NCBI GenBank assembly: GCA_965242925.1
Contig: CBDEUM010000013.1
Coordinates: 128,001 to 192,000 of the forward strand
Direction of reading: 5' to 3'
Length of the DNA stretch: 64,000 bases
From: Roseibacillus sp.
Lineage (GTDB): Bacteria > Verrucomicrobiota > Verrucomicrobiia > Verrucomicrobiales > Akkermansiaceae
A program made the translations under genes and the position numbers. Positions 2,509 to 20,479 of this stretch are shown piece after piece. The notes beneath the pieces were generated by a model that was not told the origin of the DNA, searched no databases, and saw nothing but the letters and a program-made list of their open reading frames with translations. Numbering within the stretch: position 1 is the first letter of the stretch; the number at the start of each line of letters is the position of its first letter.

Positions 2509-5500
2509 ATGGCGCAAGCAAGACGAAAGGGCATTCGGAACGAGTTATTCCGGCGTGCCATCCGAACCGCAGGTTCTGCCTTCCTCCTTACCATGATGGG
2601 CTGTTCGGACGATTCTGCTGAAAAACACCCACCAGACGAGGCGGATTCACCTGCCGCGGCAGAAAATACGCCCTTTACCTTCAAGGTCCAGAGCGACCGG
2701 GAGCGAGAGGAGCTCGCCCAGCGCGAAAAAGAGTTCGATCCCAGCAACGATGGCTGGGAGAGCGAGGCCTTCCATGGGGAGATCACCTCCCAGCTCAAGT
2801 TGCTGGCAGAATCCCTGTCGTTGGACGAGCCCCCCGGGATTCTCAGCCCGGATGCGGCCTCCTCGATCCTGCGACCCGCCAATCTGGTGCCTGTATTCCA
2901 GCGCCACGGCATGAATATCCTGCGTGCCCCCTCCCCGGCCGACTCTCCTGCCGGCCCCCTCGCGGATCAGCTGAAGGCCCTCGCTGCCTCTCTCCACCGC
3001 GAGGGAGCCGATGTCTCGGTCCGGTTCAAGCAATTCCGCGTCCGTCCCCCGGCAGAGGGTGGAGAGAGTCCCTCAAGCACCGTGCTCTACAAGGCCAGGG
3101 CCTCCAGCCCGTCCGGGGAACGCGTCCAGAACGCCACCTGGGGCATCGAGTGGGTCTACTCCCCTGCCACCTCCACCTACTTGATCAAGACCGTCCGCCC
3201 GAGCGACTTCGAGGAGATCGAGCTGCCGGCTTCTCCGGAGATCGCCACCACCGAGGACACCCATGCGCTCTTCCGGGACCGCACCGGTGATCTCATCGAT
3301 CGCCTCCCGCGGGGCGACTTCATTCACTGGGGTGCCAACGAACTCTCCGTCCGCGGCCTCTACCAGAATGGACGCGCCCTCATTGGACTCGCGGTAGCCG
3401 ACGCCAACGGGGACGGAATCGACGACGTCTTCGCTCCGCAATCCCGAGATCTTCCCAACCTGTTCTTCCTCTCCCAGCCCGATGGAAGTCTCCGGGAAGT
3501 GGCGGCCCGGTCAGGGCTCGACTGGCTGGACGAGACCACTGTCTCGCTCTTCGCCGACTTCGACAACGACGGCGACCAGGACCTCGTCGCGGCAACCCGC
3601 CAGCGTCTTGCCTTTCACGAGAATACCGATGGATCCGGCCTGAATTTCAAGCGGATCCTGGAGCTGCCCCAGAGCGACACCTCCTCCCTCGCAGCTGCCG
3701 ACTATGATGGCGACGGGCTCCTCGATCTTTTCGTGTGCAATTACCTGAGCAGCGTGGGGAATGAGGCGGTCACTCTCTCCGATGCGATCTACAACGCCCT
3801 CGATGGTGGTTCGAACCTGCTCTACCGCAATGAAGGTTCGCTGAAGTTTACCGACGTTACGGAAGCAGTGGGTATGCACGTGGATGCAACCCGGTTGAGC
3901 CTGGCGGCCTCCTGGGAAGATTTCGACAACGACGGGGATGTCGACCTCTACGTGGCCAACGACTTTGGACCGAACTGTCTCTACCGCAACGACAAGGGCA
4001 AGTTCACCCAGATCGCCAAGGAGGTGGGGGCGGACGATCCTTCCTTCGGAATGTCGATCACCTGGGGTGATATCAACCGTGACGGACTGATGGACGCCTG
4101 CATCTCCAACATGTTCTCCGCAGCCGGGAACCGCGTGACCGCCCAGCCCAAGTTCGAACAGGATCTCACCGAGGGACTGGATGCCAAGCGCATCGCCTAC
4201 CTCGCACGTGGCAACACCCTCCTCGTCAACCAGGGTGGAAAACTCTTCCAGGAACGCAGTGCCCAGGCCGGTGTGGTCAACACCCAGTGGACCTGGGGAA
4301 CGCTTTTCGGCGACTTCGACAACAGTGGCGATCTCGACATGATGGCCATGAACGGCTACATCACCGGACCGGTGGTCGATGACTTGTGAAGTTTTTACTG
4401 GCGGCAGGTCCTGCCGGAATCAGGAACAAAGAGTCCCTCGCGCGATCAACTTGAAATCTACCTGCGGGAGGGGCGTTCCCTCAGCGGCCGGGAGCGCAAC
4501 GCCCTCTTCTTCAATACCGGCACCGGAAACAGACGCTTTGCGGACGTGTCATCGATCTCCGGGATCGACCAGGACGGCGATGGGCGCGGCCTCTGCCTCA
4601 CGGACTGGGATGCCGACGGCGACCTCGACGCCTGGGTAAGCAACCGGACGGCCCCCACCATACAGGTCTTCGAAAACCGCTGGGGTTCCCAGGCGGGAGA
4701 TTTCATCGCCCTCAACCTGCAGGGCACCAAGGCTAACCGCGATGCCGCCGGGGCACGCGTGACACTGCTGCTCAAGGGACAGGAACAGGCCCCTCTCACC
4801 CGCACCGTGCATCTCGGGGAAGGGTTCCAGAGCCAGTCCTCCAAGCGCCTGCACTTCGGCCTTGGAAAGAACGCCACGATTTCCTCCGTGACCGTGCGCT
4901 GGCCGGGACCGTCCCATGCCACCGAGACGTTCTCAGGCGTGGAGATCAACAAATTCCACCTCCTGGTGGAGGGCTCCGGCCAGGCCAGGGTCCTGCAACC
5001 CCGGGGAGCCAAGTTCGTGACTCCCGAGAATGCGGTTGTGAAGCCGGAGGAACGGATCAAAAGGCCGGAGAGCAGCAACAGCATCCTGCTCCCCACCCGT
5101 CAGCTCTTCCCCAAACTCCACTATCGTGATCTTGCCACCGGCAAGACCATGATCGGAGCCACTTCCGGCAAACCCACCCTCCTTCTTCTCTGGCACCCGT
5201 CCTGCGCCATGTGTTTCGAGGAACTGTCCATGTTCACCGGGGAAGCCGACAAGATTCGCCGCCTCGGCATTGAGATCCTGGCCACCACGGCCGAACCGGC
5301 GGAGGATGAGGATCCCGATGATGCCGCCAGCATCATCTCCAAGACCGGCTTCCCCTTCACCGTCGGCTTCACCGCCGGGGAAGTGGTCGAACGCATGCTG
5401 GTACTTCACCGTCACCTCTTCTACAGTCCCTACCATCTGAGTGTCCCCACCTCCTTTCTCCTCGACAAGGATGGGCGCATGGCTGCGATCTACCGGGGTG

Positions 5501-6276
5501 CAATCGATCTCAAAGAGTTAGAGGAGCACCTCAAGGCTCTCGCCATCCCCGACAAAGAACTCCTCTCCCGGATCCGCCCCTTCGAGGGTAGCCGGTTCGA
5601 ACCAGCCATGGGGCCGCGGCCCTCGGTCCTCATTAAGACTTACGTCGAAAACCAGATGCCCGACGAAGCCGAGCGCGTCTTCATCGCAAGCATCGAGAAC
5701 GAGTCGATCAGGGACCAGAGCAATGAGATCATGGCCACCCTGGGGCAGAGTTACTTCCTGCAGAAAAAGTTTGCCGAGGCCAAGCCGCTCTTCGAGCAGG
5801 TGGTGAAGCGTGATCCCAGGGACGCCAAGTCCCGTAACACCCTCGCCGCCATCTGCCTGAAGGACGGAAACATGGTCGAGGCCAAGCGTCTGTGGCGGGA
5901 GGCCTCTGACCTCGAGGAGGATTTCTCAGCTCCCCGTTTCAATCTCGGCAAGCAACTCATGAAGGAGCAGCGGACTGCGGAGGCCATGATCCTCTTCCTC
6001 GAATACTGGGTCCTCGAGCCCGATTCCCCGGACGCCCACAATTACCTCTCCATGGGCTACCTCCGTGGTCGTGAGTTCGCCAAGGCCGAGATGCACCTCA
6101 AGCGCCTCATCGAACTGCGCCCCGACGATGGCATCGCCTACACCAACCTGGCCAAGGTCTACCTCGCCCTCCGCAATGTCGCCGCCGCCCGGGACATCAT
6201 CACCCGCGGGCTCCAGATCGAGGGGATCGACCCGCGCAGTCGGCAGGCCCTCCAGCAGTTGAGCGAACGTCTGTGA
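2509..6276 (+). CDS. FG-GAP repeat / ASPIC-UnbV / thioredoxin-like / TPR lipoprotein, about 1255 aa, read through an in-frame TGA at 4387-4389 (candidate selenocysteine)
   Basis: Lipobox MMGC; repeated DxDxDGxxD motifs; ORFs 2509-4389 and 4546-6276 are in the same frame with 52 open codons between them encoding SFYWRQV...SLSGRERN; then GEGFQSQSSKRLHFGLG (ASPIC/UnbV), WHPSCAMC (CxxC), C-terminal TPRs. Confidence 0.8.
4402..4416 (+). promoter_or_regulatory. Candidate SECIS hairpin 1
   Basis: Perfect stem CGGCAG-GTC-CTGCCG beginning 12 nt after the in-frame TGA. Confidence 0.65.
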
Positions 6277-6584: not shown

Positions 6585-9500
6585 ATGAAGCTGCACCTTC
6601 GCTTATTCCCCACGCTGCTCTGTGCGGCCCTTATCTCTCCGCTTCTGCTCGCGCAGCACACCCCCGAGAGTCTTCTCCTCCGCCGCACGGACGGTCTCAA
6701 CGTCGGCGGCGACGACTTCACCGGCGCCCTGCCCGAGAACGCCGACCAGGCTGCTCCCTTCGGCGAACTGGACGATCCCAATTCCAGTCTCATTACCGCC
6801 CTTGATGTCGACCTCGAACCCGGAAACGGGGGCATCGATCTCCTTGGTGACAACTACGATCTCGCCTTCATCTTCCAGCTCTACGATGCCGACGGCGTCT
6901 TCGCCTTCACCGAGAACTTCGACGACCGCGTCTTCTCCTTCACCGAAAACTCAAGATCGTGGCTACTCCGATCGGCGGCTCTGACAACCTGACCGCCACC
7001 GGGGCACCCCTCCAGCACAGCGATCTGGGCTGGGACACCCGCACCTACGCCAACTTCGACTTTTCTGCCGAGGGCGGCGGCGGCTGGTTCAACGTTGATA
7101 TCTGGCTCACCGAGGACGGGGGCGGTGCCCAGTCCGCCGCTGACATCGGCTTCGGTTACTTCAATGGCACTTCTTCCAACACCGCCGACTTCGGCGGCAT
7201 CGGATATGCCAGCACCTTGGGAATCAGCAGCGGGGCTCCCGCGGTCTTTGACACCGACGCCAACGGCCAGAGCTGGGGCGCTTACCTCGCCGGCTTCGAT
7301 CCCAATCTCGACAGCGACGGCGATAGCATCCCTGACGGCTACGAGTTGCAGTATTTCCCCGGGGACCTGAGCCAGCTTGGACCCGGCGACTTCGACGGCG
7401 ATGGAGTGAGCGATCCCGACGAGTACATCGACGGGACCGATCCCACTGTAGCGGACGCCGACAATGACGGCTCCAACGACGGCCAGGAAAAGGCTGCCGG
7501 CACCGATCCCTCCGATCCCGACAGCGACGGCGACGGCCTGCTTGACGGGGCGGAAACTGGCACCGGTGTATTCGTTGACGCCAACAACACCGGCACCGAT
7601 CCGCTCGATTTCGACAGTGACGACGATTCGATCGGAGACGGGACCGAGGTTGCTGCCGGATTCGATCCCAATGACCCTGCCTCCCATCCGAACGTAAGCA
7701 CAGCCAACCACAGATCGGAAAGGGTTCTCTACCGCCGGACGGACAACCTCCCCGGAGCGGACTTCACCGGGGCCCTGCCAGAGAACATTGACCAGGCCGC
7801 CCCCTTCGGAGAACCGGAGGACCCGGACTCTTTCCTCCTCGAGGCGATCAATGTGGACCAGGAGCCAGGGAGTGGGGGCGTTGACCTCACCGGCGACAAC
7901 CACGACCTCGCCTTCATCTTCCAGCTCTATGACGCCGACGGCGTCTTTGCCTTCACCGAGAATTATGACGACCGCGTCAAGATCGTGACCACCCCGATTA
8001 GCAGTTCCACCAACCTCGAAGCCAGCGGAGCAGCGGTCCAGCACACCGATGTGGGCTGGAACACCCGCAGTTTCGCCAACTTCGACTTCGGGGAAGGGGG
8101 CTGGTTCAACGTCGATATCTGGTTCAGCGAGGACGGAGGCGGCGCCCAGTCCGCGGCCGACATCGGCTTCGGCTACTACAACGACTCCTCGACCAATACC
8201 ACCGACTTCGGCGGCATCGGCTATGCCAGCACCTTCGGAGTAAGCAGCGGGGCCCCCGCGGCCTTTGACACCGACGGCAATGGCCAGAGCTGGGGTGTCT
8301 ACCTCGACAGCTTTGATCCCGAAATCGACACCGACGGCGACAGCATCCCCGACGGGTACGAGTTACAGTTGTTCCCCGGGGACCTGACCCAACTCGGATC
8401 CGGCGACTTCGATGGCGACGGGCTCAACGACCTGGAGGAATACAGTGGAGGGACCGATCCCACCGACACCGACACCGATGGTGACGGCCTGCTGGACAAC
8501 GTGGAAACCGGGAGCGGCACCTTTGTGGACTCCAACGACACCGGCACCGATCCTCGCTATGCCGACACCGATGGAGACGGCCTGAGCGACGGTGCGGAGA
8601 GCAACAGCGGCACTTTCGTCGATGCCAACGACACCGGCACGAATCCTCTGGAGACGGATTCCGACAGCGACGGCTGCCCTGACGGCGTGGAAGTTGCCCT
8701 GGGCGGGGATCGGGATCCCAACGGCGCGGACGGCCCGGGAGCCAATTCCACCTCCTATGTGCAGCCCTTCGACGGCTTCCCCAACGGTACCACCGACCTG
8801 TGCGATGGCAGCCAGATCGGAAGCAACAACGGCCCGGCCTCCATCCAGAATGACCAGCTCCGCCTGTCCCAGGATGGGACTGGAAGCACTCACTCGTCAT
8901 TCCGGATCCCGGCCCTCAACGGCTCCGCTGACGCCTGGACCATGACCTTCGACTACACCATCACCGCCGGTGGGGACCCGGCAGATGGCTTCGCCATTTC
9001 CTACGGGGCCATCCCCCCACTCACCAACCCCACCGGGGCCGCCACTGACGATGCCAACGGCGCGGGCGAGGAAGCCTGGAGCACCGCCATCCCGTGGCTC
9101 TCGGTGGAGGTCGATACCTATGACAACGGAGCAGGAGAAGGGGGCGTCAATGTGGCAACCAACACCACCGCCCACCCGGATCTGACCTTCATCCCCGGTC
9201 GGCCCATTGCCAGCGGAGAAACGCGAACCGGGACCGTGACGATCGCCTGGGACGGCAATGCCGGAACCCTCAGCGCCAACATCACCGGCCTGGTCAACCC
9301 GGTTGAGATCGTGGACCTGTCCATTCCGGACTTCACCGCCGACGACTCCTACATCTGGGCCATCAATGCCCGGACCGGGGGAGCGCACGAAACCGTCCTG
9401 ATCGACAACATGTCCGTCTCCACCACCACCACTGACGTCCACAACTTCGTGGTCTCCAATGATGACAGCGGGGCTAACCTCGACTTTGAGTGGAACAGCT

Positions 9501-10183
9501 TCGCTTCCGAAGTCTACACCGTGGTGAGCTCCACCGATCCGGCAGCGGACGGCCCACCCGAGACCTGGACCCCCGTGGCCGGACTGCAGAACCTGGGTGC
9601 CACCGTGCCGTCCAACACACACAGCATCCCGAATCCAGGCGATCCGCTGCGTATCTACCGTCTCCTGGCCGGGCCGGTTCCGGCCCTCTTCTCCGACGAC
9701 TTCGAGTCGGGAGCCGGAGACTGGACCGCCCTGGTCAATGATCCCGGTGGCAACACCCAGTGGGAGTTGGGCGCCCCGGTCGGTTCCACCGGGCCGCTTA
9801 CTGGCGCGGAGGATTCCGCCACCGCCTGGTGCACCAACCTGGGCGATTACGGAACCGACTCCGACATTTCCCTTCGCTCACCTGCCATTGACCTGACTGG
9901 TGTGCCCGGAGCGGTCCTGAGCTTTGAGGCCTTCCGGGATGCGGATGGATTCGGCGACACTGCCGAGGTGCGCTTCCTACGCGCCGCCGACCAGGTGCCG
10001 CTCGGGGCATCCGTTGCCCTCGACATGACCGCCTTCGACTCCGACTTTGAAACGATCGAGATTCCGGTCGCCGCCGCAGCCATCGGGGAAACCGTCATCA
10101 TCGAGTTCAACTTCGTCAGTGACAGTAGCGCAGACGCCTTCAGCGGTCTCACCATTGACAACGTCAGCGTGAGTGCCAACTAG
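6585..10183 (+). CDS. Large secreted adhesin-like protein: two copies of an uncharacterised beta-rich domain, TSP3-like Ca-binding DxDGDG repeats, L-type lectin-like domain, C-terminal MAM-like domain; frameshifted by a 20-nt insertion at 6931-6950
   Basis: Signal peptide MKLHLRLFPTLLCAALI; removing 6931-6950 joins ORF 6432-6992 to ORF 6959-10183 (DDRVKIVATP, compare DDRVKIVTTP in copy 2); many DSDGDG repeats; PADGFAISY...VEVDTYDN lectin-like motifs. Confidence 0.75.
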
Positions 10184-13212: not shown

Positions 13213-16200
13213 TCACCGTGATTGGGCTATCGTCACAATGTTGTCCGTATCTGCCCTGACTTGGTGAGTCGACTCGCTCCCGTCCGGCCAGCGGACCGAA
13301 AGCTCCATATCCCTTCCGGGCCGTGCGAAGCACAGGAGGCCTCCCGAGCGGGTGGAATATCCCCCCCCAACCTGTTGCTCCCGCAATTGATGGCCCAGCC
13401 GGACCCTTGCACCAACCGCTTGCGGGTTGCCCTTGGTTCCCACCAGGCGCACCCTCAGCGGCAGCTTGCCGCCACGACGGAGGAAGGTCATCACGGGCTC
13501 CTCATTGATTCCGAAGACCAGATCCAAACGCCCGTCCGTATTGAGATCCACCACCGAAAGGCTCTTCCCGGCCCCGGGAACCTCGACTCCACTGGCAACA
13601 GGTGCAACAGGAGTAAACTGCCCCCCTCCGTCATTGAGCAGGACCTGGCCCAGGCCGCCGTCCATCCGCCCGGTCTCACGTTGGGGGCTGAAGGAATTCT
13701 GTGCCAGGACGGCGTCAAGGTCTCCGTCTCCATCGAGGTCCTCCAGCACCACACCGTAGGACGGTGCAATCTGTGCGATACGTGGCAGGGAACGCCACGT
13801 GAAGACGGCACTGCCGTCGTTGACCAGGATTCCACTCTCAAGGACATTTGCCTCCCGTCGCAGGGACTTTGACAGCCGGAGATCACTATAGATGTCATCC
13901 AGAACCGCACTGGCAAAGTTGTGGAAGGTCTCTAGTTTCACATCAAGAAAGGGCATCGCGTCGCGCGAACAACTGAAACCCCGCCGGGGAAGAAGGCGGC
14001 CTTCCGTATCATACTTGGCCTCCACGAGGTGGGACTTCCCACTTCCGTCGAGATCGCCGTAGTAGATCAACTCAGGGGATTCCGGGCTCGCCTTGTATTT
14101 TGAGTTCAGGCCGTTGTTGGTCACAAGGTAGTCGAGGTCGCCATCACCATCGATGTCTCCGCCTGCAATCCCGTTCCACCAACCCAGCCGGTCAGCGAGC
14201 TGGGACTCCGCGGTTCGATCGACGAGGACTCCCTCTTCGTTCCGAAAATAGCGCACCGGTCCCCACTCAACAGTAAGCAGAAGGTCACTCCAGCCATCAT
14301 CGTCAACATCCGACCAGAGGGCCCCGGTCACCATCCCGACCTCGTCCGCCCCGGGGAACTGCTCCGGGCCGGCCGGCACGAATGTTCCGTCCGTGTTGAT
14401 GAGCAGGTGACTCGGTGGAGCGAGGGGAAAGCTCCCCGGCACCACCCGCCCTCCAACGAAGAGATCAAGGTCACCGTCCCGGTCAAAGTCTCCCGCCGCC
14501 ACCGGCCCGGAACTGGTGCGAAAATCGGGAAGCGCTCCCTTCCCCGCGGGAGAAAGACCTCCCCGACCGTCGTTAAGATAGAGACGGTCACGATAGCTGA
14601 CGTGACCCTCCGCCTCTTCCACTCCACCACTCGCCACGAAAAGGTCCCGATCGCCGTCGCTGTCCGCGTCAAAGAACAGAGCTCCCAGGTCCTCCGCCCC
14701 GGCATCAGCAGCAAGCGCCTCCACTTCACCGACAGAGAACCGGCCATCACCCCCGTTGAAGTGAATCTGCCCTGGATATCCCCGGGATCCTCCGAGAAAG
14801 AAATCCTCATCCCCATCACCATCGAGATCGCCCCAGGCCACACAGGGACCCTGCTGTGAGAGTTTGTTGGGCAAGAGCGGCTGCCGGGAAAAATCGTCAA
14901 AAGGCTGCTCCCGGTGGATCGCGGTGGAAAGATGATCCGACCGCTCAAACAGGACCGGAAGAGCCGAATCAGCCGGGGGATCCGGCTGCCCGACCGGCTC
15001 GGTAATCAAGTGGTAATGATCAGCCTCGAGATCCGTGAGAAGCTGACGCGTCCCTCCGGGCCAGAGAATCTCGATCCTGTCAATGGTCCTCGCCGATCCC
15101 AACCCGAAGCAGGCGGCGGTATCACTGGCGGAGAGCCAGCCCCGCGCGGCGGTTACGAAGCGGGTCTGCTTACCCATCGCGGTTGTCACCGTAATAGTGG
15201 CTCCCAACCCGTCCCGGTTGCTTGCCCGGCCCATCAATTTGATCACCACACGATGAGTGTCGGCAACCCGGTTGCGATAGAGCGTGACCGGTTCCCCCGC
15301 ATTGCTGACGGCCAGATCCGGATCTCCATCACCATCAAAATCGGCACTGGCAGCACCGAAACTCACGCCAAGATGTTCCAGCCCCCACTCCGCACCGGCT
15401 GATTTGAACTTGAGATCTCCCAGGTTCCGGAAGGCCATGTTCTTTTCCTTCCGCAACGGTTTCTCAAGCCAGAACCTGGCATACTCGGGGGTCCCCGGCT
15501 GCAGGTTCTTCCTGGAATAATCGGAGAGGTCGCTGTTCATGTTGTCGCGCATTACCCCGTTGGTCACGTAGATATCAGCGCGCCCATCCTGGTCGTAGTC
15601 CTCAATACGCGGCGTCCACGTCCAGTCCGTGCTCGCCAGCCCGGCAAGGAAGGCGGCCTCCCGAAACCGTCCTGTGCCTGAGTTGAGGAGCAGCGCATTG
15701 CGCATGTACTGCCGTGGCTCGGGCCACTCAAGGAACCAACCCATGTCGTCCATGTTCCCCATCATCACCTTCTCCCGGTAATGCGAGCTCGCCGACATGT
15801 CGGAAGCGAAGAGATCAAGCAACCCGTCATTGTCGAGATCACCGACATCGCTTCCCATTGAGAACCAGGGCGTATGGGGCACTGCTTCCCTCGCGACATC
15901 CTCAAATGTGCCATCTCCACGGTTACGGTAGAGCATGTCAGGCCCCGTGAAATCGTTGGACACATAGAGGTCCGCGTCTCCATCGGCATCATAGTCAATC
16001 CAGGTAGAGGACAGCGTGAAGTAAGCACCCTTGATCCCCGCCACCCTGGAGACATCAACGAACTGCCCGCCGTCATTACGGAAGAGCCGATCACGCTGCC
16101 CCGCCTCCACACGCTGCGCCTTGTCCCCGGGCTTTATCAGGATTTCCCAGTACTCGCTCAGCTCGGGAATTACCACCGGGATTTCCTTTCCGTCACTCTC

Positions 16201-16911
16201 CCGGGGGACGAACTTCACCCTGAAGTCCGTTCCCGGTGGAGGTGCCACCGCAGTGGTCGCAAGGTAGCCGTCAAGATCGCCGTCATTATCAATATCCGTG
16301 AAGCTCATCATCATGCTCCCGCCATTGAAGTCGAGGCCCACCTCCGCGGCCCGGTCGACAAACCTTCCCGTGCCGTCATTTATGTAGAGCTTGTTGGGCC
16401 GGGTATAGCCACAGGCGTAGAGATCGAGATCTCCGTCATCGTCAATATCGACGAAACTCGCACCGGTTCCCCAGAAGCCCGGATCGGAGACCCCGGACGC
16501 CTTGGTCACATCTTCAAACTTAAATCCTCCCGTGTTTCGGTAGAGCCGGTTGCCCCCCGAGGGACTGGTAATGTAGAGATCCGGCAACCCGTCGCCATCA
16601 TAGTCACCCGCGCAGATCCCCCCGGAGGGATTGAGGAAGATGAACTCCTTGAGGACGCTGGCCGGGTCATCCCAATGCATGCCGTAGTCAATTCCCGTCC
16701 GCCCGGCCGGGAGCGCCTCAAAGAGGGCCTCCCCCTCGGCCCGGACCGCACGGACCGGGAGAGGTCGGGATTCGACGGTCCCTGGTGCCGGGGCCACCCC
16801 ACCGCGATCAGGATCCGGGCCGGCAGATGTTCCTGCCGGTTTGTCGCAACCCGCCACCACGAGCACCAGGGGTATCGCTGCACCAGCAAGCAGGTGGGAA
16901 ATCGGATTCAT
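13213..16911 (-). CDS. Double FG-GAP/VCBS repeat + ASPIC-UnbV lipoprotein (CRTAC1-like)
   Basis: Lipobox VVAGC; many GDxDGDGxxD repeats; FSMGSDVGD, QYMRNAL, TDWTW, GWLSAS..FGLG; no internal stop. Confidence 0.88.
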   Translation of the reverse strand: MNPISHLLAGAAIPLVLVVAGCDKPAGTSAGPDPDRGGVAPAPGTVESRPLPVRAVRAEGEALFEALPAGRTGIDYGMHWDDPASVLKEFIFLNPSGGICAGDYDGDGLPDLYITSPSGGNRLYRNTGGFKFEDVTKASGVSDPGFWGTGASFVDIDDDGDLDLYACGYTRPNKLYINDGTGRFVDRAAEVGLDFNGGSMMMSFTDIDNDGDLDGYLATTAVAPPPGTDFRVKFVPRESDGKEIPVVIPELSEYWEILIKPGDKAQRVEAGQRDRLFRNDGGQFVDVSRVAGIKGAYFTLSSTWIDYDADGDADLYVSNDFTGPDMLYRNRGDGTFEDVAREAVPHTPWFSMGSDVGDLDNDGLLDLFASDMSASSHYREKVMMGNMDDMGWFLEWPEPRQYMRNALLLNSGTGRFREAAFLAGLASTDWTWTPRIEDYDQDGRADIYVTNGVMRDNMNSDLSDYSRKNLQPGTPEYARFWLEKPLRKEKNMAFRNLGDLKFKSAGAEWGLEHLGVSFGAASADFDGDGDPDLAVSNAGEPVTLYRNRVADTHRVVIKLMGRASNRDGLGATITVTTAMGKQTRFVTAARGWLSASDTAACFGLGSARTIDRIEILWPGGTRQLLTDLEADHYHLITEPVGQPDPPADSALPVLFERSDHLSTAIHREQPFDDFSRQPLLPNKLSQQGPCVAWGDLDGDGDEDFFLGGSRGYPGQIHFNGGDGRFSVGEVEALAADAGAEDLGALFFDADSDGDRDLFVASGGVEEAEGHVSYRDRLYLNDGRGGLSPAGKGALPDFRTSSGPVAAGDFDRDGDLDLFVGGRVVPGSFPLAPPSHLLINTDGTFVPAGPEQFPGADEVGMVTGALWSDVDDDGWSDLLLTVEWGPVRYFRNEEGVLVDRTAESQLADRLGWWNGIAGGDIDGDGDLDYLVTNNGLNSKYKASPESPELIYYGDLDGSGKSHLVEAKYDTEGRLLPRRGFSCSRDAMPFLDVKLETFHNFASAVLDDIYSDLRLSKSLRREANVLESGILVNDGSAVFTWRSLPRIAQIAPSYGVVLEDLDGDGDLDAVLAQNSFSPQRETGRMDGGLGQVLLNDGGGQFTPVAPVASGVEVPGAGKSLSVVDLNTDGRLDLVFGINEEPVMTFLRRGGKLPLRVRLVGTKGNPQAVGARVRLGHQLREQQVGGGYSTRSGGLLCFARPGRDMELSVRWPDGSESTHQVRADTDNIVTIAQSR

Positions 16912-18028: not shown

Positions 18029-20479
18029 TCATGAACTTTCACTAATGTAATGTAGTTTTTGGGTCTCGAGATTCTCGAGCACCTGGATTTTCCCTGAAGG
18101 CCAGCGGATCGTGAGCCGATCCACTTGCTTGGCCGAACCCAGGCCAAAGTGAATGGAGTTACTGGCCTGGGAGCGGTAGGAATTCACCGGGAATTGATGT
18201 CGCACGATCAGGCGGCCCCCTGCCTCCGCCACCAGGCGGGCGCCGATCCCATGCCGGTTGCTGGTCGTCCCGCGCAAACGAACTGCAACCCAGTTTCCTG
18301 CTGGAAAACGGTTCTCGAATATAAGGACCGCACCTCCTCCCGTCTGGCGCACAATCAGTTCCTGCCGCCCATCTCCCTCAAGATCAGCGGCGACACAGGC
18401 CCGGGCATCTCCATCGCTGTCTGCGCCGGTCAGGTGACTGATCTCAAGGAAGCTCTCTCCTTCCATACTGAGAAAAGCCCGGTTCCTCTCATAGCTGCTC
18501 AGATTATTCTCCCAGTTGATCCTGAAGGGATCCTCCACCCAGAATTCTCCCAATGAAGGATCGGGAGCGCCAGGACAACTGGCAGTAGCTGAGCGGTTAA
18601 ATGGTTGTGACACGACAACCTGCCAGAGACAACTTCAGCCATCGGGCTTGCCCCGTTCCTGGCTGATGAATCCTGCGGTCGCGTAGAGGTCGAGCCAACC
18701 GTCATTGTTGAAGTCCGCCAGGCACGGTCCCCACGCCCATCCAACCGCGTTTACTCCCATCACGGTTCCAACCGGGGAGAATCGTTCTCCTTCCTGCCCG
18801 AGGTAGAGCTGGCTCCCATCAACCAGTCGTTCGAGTTTCCGGACCACCTGCCTGTCATATTCTCCCGGGGGAATATTGCCCATGACCCGCTGCCCGGCCT
18901 TGGAATACATTTCCCCGATATAAAGATCGGAGTAGCCATCGTTGTTGATGTCTCCCGCTGTCATTCCCATTGAACCAAAATCGGTTGGCGCCTCGTTCAG
19001 TTCCTTCCCCTGGAATTGTCCATTCGGACCATTGAGCAGCAGGATTCCATCTCCAAACTCGTCGATTACATAAAGGTCCGGCCTCAGGTCATCGTTTGCA
19101 TGGAACCAAACTGCGTTGCTGGTCGAACGCTGACCGCCATCGAGAGGCGCCCCATTGGTCGCATCCTCAAATTGCCAGCCCCCGACATTCCGCAGCAACT
19201 GGTTGTTGGCCAGCTTGCCTGCCTTGCCGTCAATCCAGGATCCCGATTTGAACCCGCCTCCTGCTCCCCGGGTGACATAGAGGTCGACCTTTCCATCGAG
19301 GTCGTAATCTGCCAGCGAAATCCCGGTGGGTTTCACCTGAGTTTTTTCCAGAACCTGCTCCCGGGTGCTGGTCTTGAATTCTTCCCGCGACATCCCGATC
19401 AGAAAGGAGGTCAGGTTGCTGCGCTCCGTGATGTCCTGAAAAAAACGACCGTTCAGATTACGGTAGAGGCGGTAGCCATCCGGATGGTGGGCAATGCCGT
19501 GGATGAGATCCTCCCAGCCGTCGCCATCCAGATCGACAAAAGCCGCAAAGCCCCCTCCCAGGTGACCACGTATGCCCAGGGCCTGCGTCCCTTCCCGAAA
19601 CAATCCCCGCGGCTGGCCGACGAAAAAGCGTGAACCCCGCATGTCGGTCACGAAGAGGTCATGGCGCCCATCGTTGTTGAAATCACAAAGGTAAACTCCG
19701 CCCGTGTTCATCACCCTCCGGTTACGGGGCTCCTTCCAGTTATCCCAGAAGAGAGCATTGTTGATTCCGCGCCCGGCAGCTACTTCGGTCATGAGAGGCT
19801 CCCTGGCATGCCCAAGCACCGCACGTGTCACATGCATGGAGACAAGCCACCCCGGGGTCGCCAGCCGCTCCTCGTTCAAGGCCGAGACTCCGAACTGAAA
19901 AAAGAGGGTGAGCTCTCCCCGTGATCCTGCCGGACCCTCCGCGAACACCTCGATCTTTCCAGTCCCGGACCAGGGTCCCCCGGGGTTGTCCCGCTCCTCC
20001 GGAGAGAGCGTGATGACATGAGTCCGCAACGTGAGATCGGCGCGCCCGCTCTGATCGAGTTCAGCCAATCTTCCCAGGATCCAGTCGGTAATCCCCTCCC
20101 GCTCGACACGCCGCGATTGACTGCTGCCAACCTCTTCGCGCACCGCAAGGATACCAGCTTGGAAGGATTGGCCTTTTCCGGCAGCTGGATGCAGTCCCTT
20201 GAACCCGGGAGCAAGGATATCAACCAACTTCTGGCGGTTCCGTGACTGCAAGGCTTCTGCAATCTGGGAAAACCCAATCTCCTTCAGGAGATTGGCACGA
20301 TGCTCGGCATCCCATATGTAACTCCGTCCCTCCTCACTGATGAGCCTGGGCGGATCGTCCGGCTCCCGGGCCACGCGATCGCTCTCATCCTTCTCGGAAC
20401 AGGAGCAAAGGAGCAGGGCCACCACCCAGCAGGGTGCTGCCCTTGCCGCGGGGAACTCCGTCATCGGTCCGGGCATCAC
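18029..20479 (-). CDS. FG-GAP repeat / ASPIC-UnbV lipoprotein, about 816 aa, read through an in-frame TGA at 18637-18635 (candidate selenocysteine)
   Basis: Lipobox LCSC; DxNxDG repeats; ORFs 18635-20479 and 18029-18613 are in frame with 7 open codons (SCLWQVV) between them; NLSSYERNRAF and SYRSQ..IHFGLG (ASPIC/UnbV). Confidence 0.8.
18604..18633 (-). promoter_or_regulatory. Candidate SECIS hairpin 2
   Basis: After UGA: lower stem GUUGU/ACAAC, upper stem GGCA-GGU-UGUC; shares GGCAGGU with hairpin 1. Confidence 0.55.

Follow-up and report, generated by a model that had tools for sequence, protein, structure and literature searches.

Bacteria direct the insertion of selenocysteine (Sec) from within the open reading frame (ORF). 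In the archetype, fdhF of Escherichia coli, a hairpin stands directly after the recoded UGA – the selenocysteine insertion sequence (SECIS) – and offers SelB a small apical loop, beginning with G and U, on a stable stem. Here we describe a gene that shows the same arrangement, with a spacing of 18 nucleotides (nt) and a stable stem. It lies at 2509-6276 on the plus strand of a 64,000-nt stretch of a Roseibacillus genome (GenBank assembly GCA_965242925.1, contig CBDEUM010000013.1, positions 128,001 to 192,000; hereafter the window, to which coordinates refer unless a contig is named). Comparison with related sequences gives strong support to the view that the internal UGA of this gene, at 4387-4389, is a selenocysteine codon specifying residue 627, a reading to which we attach a probability of roughly 0.9.

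The family to which the gene belongs is not new to print: it is widespread and barely documented. Table S9 of Kim et al. (2016, PLoS One; PMC4807772) contains four members as 'candidates' from two planctomycete genomes. Like the present gene, these belong to the same domain family, and each is annotated as a pair of genes with an in-frame UGA between them. For three of the four a SECIS had been predicted, and the residue aligned to the UGA in the closest match was not Cys (it was Gly, in an acidobacterium). That table comes without analysis of conservation, selection, SECIS covariation, domains or structure, and the terms FG-GAP and ASPIC are absent from the main text of the paper; the Roseibacillus gene, by comparison, comes from a 13-copy expansion. 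A full-text search of the literature returned no other joint mention of FG-GAP, ASPIC, UnbV or CRTAC with selenoproteins, nor did these names turn up in term searches of a 2026 review and of the papers on deep-Sep and BSepDB (PMC13188914, PMC12013277, PMC13326102).

Two further systems bear on the protein itself. With CRTAC1 (cartilage acidic protein 1; murine structure 9etn) it has in common an FG-GAP propeller and an ASPIC/UnbV fold, whereas CRTAC1 is without the thioredoxin and tetratricopeptide repeat (TPR) parts, and the sequence alignment with CRTAC1 leaves uncovered the helical insert that would bear the Sec. To our knowledge CRTAC1 is not a selenoprotein. The C-terminal domain resembles the extracytoplasmic thiol-disulfide oxidoreductases ResA, TlpA and StoA in its fold and in having a CxxC where a helix begins; unlike in those proteins, the thioredoxin domain is here fused to a propeller that would carry Sec.

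The reading frame across the UGA

The TGA at 4387-4389 closes an ORF that begins at 2509, and a second ORF (4546-6276) follows downstream in the same frame. An earlier reading of the window, made from its letters alone (the sequence-only reading), had claimed that the 156 nt in between (4390-4545) are stop-free and coding and resemble gene B, a paralogue on the minus strand, and that the downstream ORF starts on a GTG in the middle of a repeat and has no signal peptide. Both claims hold. The interval translates without interruption as ...EGRSLSGRERNALFFN..., a stretch that tblastn aligns with ...NNLSSYERNRAFLS... of gene B, while the ORF list and the translation place the GTG start inside an FG-GAP repeat, with no signal peptide to follow it. 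With one in-frame TGA read through, the gene comprises 1255 codons and a terminal TGA.

Evidence that the frame is coding across the UGA came from the pattern of substitution among 12 orthologues (79-98% protein identity; Nei-Gojobori estimates). The ratio of nonsynonymous to synonymous rates (dN/dS) is 0.107 over the 52 formerly 'intergenic' codons, where the synonymous rate (dS) is about 1.04; the flanks give 0.074 (dS 1.46) for the 146 codons before the TGA and 0.061 (dS 1.38) for the 121 codons after the interval. Purifying selection on 4390-4545, whose absence the sequence-only reading had named as refuting its proposal, is thus evident. The codons concerned specify a predicted helical insert of the propeller, beginning U-SFYWRQVL (U being the putative Sec).

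The TGA itself is conserved. Family matches were found in 25 of 41 related genomes, and 146 of the 150 matches listed (a further 167 lay beyond these) contain exactly one TGA, the remaining four being partial and not spanning the column in question (residue 147 of the query). Among 30 loci checked, 28 have TGA at the homologous column and the other two (29% identity) have Ala. The same column holds TGA in all 16 named records, which include Roseibacillus metagenome-assembled genomes, other Verrucomicrobiales, one Planctomycetales and one Pirellulaceae; in 13 paralogues of the genome, within the motif D-L-U-S-x-x-W-R-x-V-V; and in seven more forms from metagenome contigs.

One of these paralogues, gene B (18029-20476, minus strand), lies within the window and would be its second Sec gene of the family, with a TGA (18635-18637) at the homologous column despite an identity of 28%. 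It is a probable lipoprotein of 815 codons without thioredoxin or TPR parts, and its motif is PDG-U-S-C-LWQVVV.

Some individual records call for comment. The Pirellulaceae record (L064) has 13 other stops in the Sec frame within the 346 codons upstream of its TGA, which may point to a frameshift in the N-terminal part or to a fragmentary gene. Two pairs of family members on different contigs of the genome, C12:51079 with C17:49805 and C28:4493 with C37:896, are identical or nearly identical in sequence around the TGA, reflecting either redundancy of the assembly (contamination 3.18%) or very recent duplication.

The hairpin and the selenocysteine machinery

After the TGA come a 12-nt spacer, AGTTTTTACTGG (4390-4401), and then CGGCAG-GTC-CTGCCG (4402-4416), the putative SECIS apex: a perfect stem of 6 base pairs (bp), CGGCAG/CUGCCG, capped by the 3-nt loop GUC, which starts 18 nt after the UGA. 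The G and the U of the loop are positions 22-23 counted from the U of the UGA (4408-4409), and inspection of 4387-4416 bears out what had been claimed of this hairpin from the letters. Folded within 45 nt, it has a minimum free energy (MFE) of -12.7 kcal/mol. The consensus model of the bacterial SECIS by Zhang and Gladyshev, as given in PMC13188914, calls for a loop of 3-9 nt, a stem of 4-16 bp, G in the first two loop positions, a spacing of 16-37 nt between UGA and loop and an MFE of at most -7.5 kcal/mol; the hairpin at 4402-4416 agrees with it in loop, stem, G, spacing and MFE. No bulged U is evident in it.

GC-rich hairpins of 6 bp are no rarity at such a base composition, and by itself this one does not go beyond chance; only when related sequences are compared does it gain significance. 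That comparison reveals a UGA and a hairpin that are conserved together, and constraint on the hairpin at the level of the RNA. Synonymous change is about five-fold lower in the first 11 codons after the TGA (dS 0.26, dN/dS 0.083), the other 41 'intergenic' codons giving a dS of 1.37 and a dN/dS of 0.102. Of 42 distinct TGA forms, 37 encode the Val at nt 22-24 with GTC, versus 3 of the 11 non-TGA homologues that have the SFFWRQVV peptide (Fisher 1.7e-4, on rows that are not independent). At the codon before it, a Gln position in most forms, the TGA forms use CAG in 32 of 42 cases and CAA in none, the corresponding counts in 12 non-TGA forms being 7 and 3.

The stems themselves point the same way. 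They differ between subfamilies but pair in each (CGGCAG/CUGCCG, GCGGCA/UGUCGC, GCGCAC/GUGCGC, GCGCCA/UGGCGC). Counted in the register 15-20/26-31 over 30 family sequences, 86.1% of cells are paired, a value reached by none of 500 shuffles; most of the stem pairs are invariant, and pair 18-28 occurs as GU, GC, AU, CG and UG. In gene B the stem GGUUGU/ACAACC becomes GGCUGU/ACAGCC in a 53%-identical orthologue (L081), the third pair having changed on both sides, and two other orthologues hold wobble intermediates.

Of the machinery for Sec insertion, tRNA-Sec, SelB and SelD are present. The genome has a tRNA-Sec with anticodon TCA and a SelB (287.5 bits) with beta-barrel, SelB-wing_2 and SelB-wing_3 domains, and its selD is itself a selenoprotein gene with an in-frame TGA (SSCAG-U-ASK; contig C14:573853-574776, locus L009). 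The apex of the selD SECIS, GCGCAG-GUC-CUGCGC, shares the core GCAG-GUC-CUGC with the hairpin at 4402-4416, from which it differs in standing about 15 nt farther downstream of the UGA of its own gene; SelD is a cytoplasmic protein with abundant Cys homologues. This comparison within one genome replaces the likeness to E. coli fdhF noted in the sequence-only reading, which gives that element as GCAG-GU-CUGC at nearly the same spacing.

Assuming the UGA is read as in textbook bacterial Sec insertion, a ribosome arriving at it would encounter SelB-GTP which, carrying Sec-tRNA(Sec) and bound to the mRNA hairpin at 4402-4416, would deliver Sec. Translation would continue for 628 more codons, and the Sec would mark the N-terminus of a conserved helix (U-SFYWRQV) set into the propeller. 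The involvement of SelB we infer from this general mechanism. The proposal that the UGA at 4387 is a Sec codon, which was first made from the letters, is supported by the conserved TGA, by selection, by the fit to the SECIS model and by the presence of tRNA-Sec, SelB and SelD.

Alternatives to selenocysteine at residue 627

While the case for Sec draws on several lines of data, a number of observations weigh against it. Taken on its own, a 71-nt window around the hairpin folds no better than shuffled sequence (z = 0.30; 123 of 200 shuffles were at least as stable), and Rfam holds no relevant match, the sole one being a chance hit to mir-58 (E 9.7). RNAalifold, applied to 30 mixed sequences, returned a different and weak 4-bp structure without compensatory change; because that alignment mixes at least three stem registers, pairs were counted on a named structure and the subfamilies were inspected by eye. 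The peptide motif encoded by the stem, WRQV, is conserved even in homologues without the UGA. Some of these homologues also fold well, since GC-rich codons for WRQVV come close to being self-complementary: strict-motif non-TGA forms (n = 12) average about -7.6 (by hand), and three fold like TGA forms. Part of the hairpin potential stems from the conserved peptide WRQVV itself, and its near self-complementary codons may be the origin of the SECIS. SelA, furthermore, was not found in the assembly with the profiles TIGR00474 and PF03841. The assembly is 89.9% complete, and since 18 of 19 congeners have SelA, the gene is probably missing from it. The residue found at the Sec column in homologues without TGA is a last such point. 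Of 27,614 matches among 1.84 billion representatives, the best 150 were used; 109 of these span the column and keep the motif that follows. Cys stands at the column in only 4 of the 109, which makes the site atypical by the Cys/Sec criterion and weakens the claim of a catalytic Sec.

Some of these points can be set in context. As a separator of TGA from non-TGA forms, hairpin stability was tried and fails: the mean free energy (dG) is -9.6 in TGA forms (n = 7) versus -5.6 in a non-TGA set (n = 27) that came from a loose motif filter and included unrelated repeats. It is synonymous codon choice that separates the two. With regard to SelA, 21 relatives outside the genus show it in all four genomes with TGA forms versus 3 of the 17 without, and the two exceptions to this co-occurrence within the genus are incomplete assemblies; since kin are not independent, the co-occurrence is supportive only. 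As to the column, Cys homologues aligned to Sec are a usual property of selenoproteins and no requirement. The residues that do occur there, apart from Cys, are Glu (33), Ser (19), Asp (18), Ala (12), Asn (8), Gln and Met (3 each), Arg, Gly and Leu (2 each) and Thr, Trp and Pro (1 each). Glu, Asp, Ser and Asn are typical of helix N-termini, a location at which the helix dipole would stabilise a selenolate.

A column so unconstrained in relatives raises the possibility that the main role of the UGA and its hairpin is to gate translation by selenium, such that full-length protein is made only with Sec-tRNA and the identity of residue 627 is of little matter; with 13 copies in one genome, a common control point would be plausible. 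Such a gate would still insert Sec, and it is a sub-case of the Sec reading, not an alternative to it. Moreover, the TGA persists among paralogues of 28-50% identity and in at least two phyla, suggesting that the residue itself brings an advantage, and the link with an intact CxxC and the U-x-C motif (described below) point to chemistry. We consider a gate of this kind improbable.

A second possibility is that decoding at the UGA involves neither SelB nor selenium: the hairpin would promote near-cognate reading of the UGA as Trp, Cys or Arg. In other systems, hairpins downstream of leaky stops do stimulate read-through, four relatives have Cys at the column, and one full-length close relative of 1207 residues (P0007), with an intact CxxC, has Arg there (HDL-R-SFYWRQVV). 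The hairpin, however, matches both the SECIS model and the apex of the selD SECIS of the same genome, the four genomes outside the genus in which TGA forms were seen all have SelA, and Trp appears at the column once among the 109 non-TGA homologues; we judge near-cognate read-through very unlikely. P0007 may represent a recent loss of Sec, Arg being one base change from TGA.

That the UGA is a true stop, whether between two separate genes or in a recently broken pseudogene, is scarcely credible: gene callers do split the locus, and among database clusters there are N-terminal halves that stop at the column (P0034, 626 residues) as well as C-terminal halves (P0093, P0113), but the 156 nt beyond the UGA are under purifying selection, well over a hundred genes have a stop in this very column, the downstream ORF begins inside a repeat without a signal peptide, and termination would interrupt a propeller fold that runs on unbroken both in the model and in CRTAC1.

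Fold, possible redox chemistry and the wider family

With the UGA read as Sec, the product is one large exported protein of 1255 residues, probably a lipoprotein. Its probable lipoprotein signal peptide (2509-2604), judged by eye from the translation, has a basic N-terminus and a hydrophobic stretch and ends in ...LLTMMG-C; paralogues have similar ends, ...L(L/V)(S/G)(A/G)C. An N-terminal region precedes the propeller, for which the read-through product gives a Pfam FG-GAP_3 match of 3.3e-36. The parts that follow, all on the plus strand, are an UnbV/ASPIC domain (residues 746-816, 4744-4956; Pfam PF07593, 4e-18), a ResA/TlpA-like thioredoxin domain (residues 873-992, 5125-5484; Pfam AhpC-TSA 2.5e-06, and Foldseek) with the CxxC motif C-A-M-C (Cys899 and Cys902, 5203-5214), and a C-terminal TPR region (about residues 1040-1251, 5626-6261; Pfam TPR_19, TPR_2, TPR_16 and others).

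An AlphaFold2 model of residues 281-1020, made with 24 aligned sequences, has a predicted local distance difference test score (pLDDT) of 81.5 and a predicted template-modelling (TM) score of 0.78. In Foldseek its propeller and ASPIC region matches 9etn, the murine CRTAC1 structure (E 3.7e-26, TM score on the target 0.70), for which phmmer gives 3.8e-16, and its C-terminal domain matches ResA, TlpA and StoA (TM score on the target 0.66-0.79). NCBIfam has no model for the propeller part; its ResA match (5.5e-06) scores 26.4, far below the cut-off of 170. Helices 346-357 and 363-373 of the model, as assigned by DSSP, fall within the insert encoded by 4390-4545. The Sec is model residue 347, at the start of the first of these and after a disordered loop, and the CxxC stands at the start of helix 620-631. 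With a pLDDT of 57-69 around the Sec its placement at a helix start is tentative, which tells against a reading built upon it.

What the Sec might do is suggested by the company it keeps. The CxxC is present in all 19 aligned long Sec forms and in eight of the nine long Sec paralogues of the genome, the ninth having CxxS. Among 77 non-TGA representatives with a thioredoxin-like domain, 10 have CxxC, 15 a single Cys and 52 no Cys. In the subfamily without thioredoxin, a Cys stands two residues after the Sec (U-S-C or U-P-C) in all six gene B orthologue loci and in L041 and C34; U-x-C is absent from L082 and from C12/C17. As an association, this pattern accords with a redox site of the selenenylsulfide type, which the fused domain or a local Cys would service.

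The association has also to be viewed against descent. A tree clusters the Sec forms with six changes of Sec label, at least three of them forced by supported branches, and none of 500 shuffles is as low; because the tree is unrooted, gain and loss of Sec are not distinguishable on it. The contrast between Sec and CxxC comprises one starred and four total independent pairs, so few that the test is powerless and the link inseparable from shared ancestry, and this too counts against a functional interpretation.

Bearing this in mind, we suggest at somewhat short of even odds that the Sec is an extracytoplasmic redox-active nucleophile, working with or recycled by the fused CxxC domain. A broader and more doubtful proposal concerns its origin. 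Sec may have been recruited to a helix-capping position, occupied by Glu, Ser or Asp in relatives, without replacing a catalytic Cys; together with the CxxC or the U-x-C it would have formed a new extracytoplasmic selenium redox site on a CRTAC1-like propeller. The family would then have multiplied in marine Verrucomicrobiota until single genomes had more than 10 copies, and would have reached Planctomycetota as well.

The genes around 2509-6276 encode NUDIX, MFS, GAPDH, TSP3-repeat and HlyD-like proteins, and we found no functional clue among them. The TSP3-repeat protein (6959-10183, plus strand; 1074 residues), which lies between the two Sec genes, carries TSP3 repeats of the bacterial type, and its N-terminal ~300 residues are plainly duplicated within the protein. 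The window also holds a paralogue without TGA (13213-16911, minus strand; 1232 residues), with seven FG-GAP_3 stretches and an UnbV_ASPIC domain in mid-protein; at the Sec column it has Ser (SDL-S-DYSRKN), and it lacks the SFFWRQVV motif.

The mechanism of recoding proposed here is the ordinary bacterial one; it is the Sec site that is atypical and the expansion of paralogues that is striking. Standard gene calling mis-splits this gene, at least 12 more in the same genome and hundreds in relatives, with the result that protein catalogues hold halves of a large exported family. Searches for Cys/Sec pairs would miss the family because relatives have Glu, Ser or Asp at the site. The finding would raise the selenoprotein count of one marine bacterium by more than 10, and would locate selenium chemistry in the periplasm or at the cell surface, on a fold also found in animal CRTAC1, the tight link between Sec and an intact CxxC offering a testable handle on function. 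If the recruitment of Sec to a position that was never a catalytic Cys is true, then there would exist large selenoproteomes that are invisible to Cys/Sec-pair searches.

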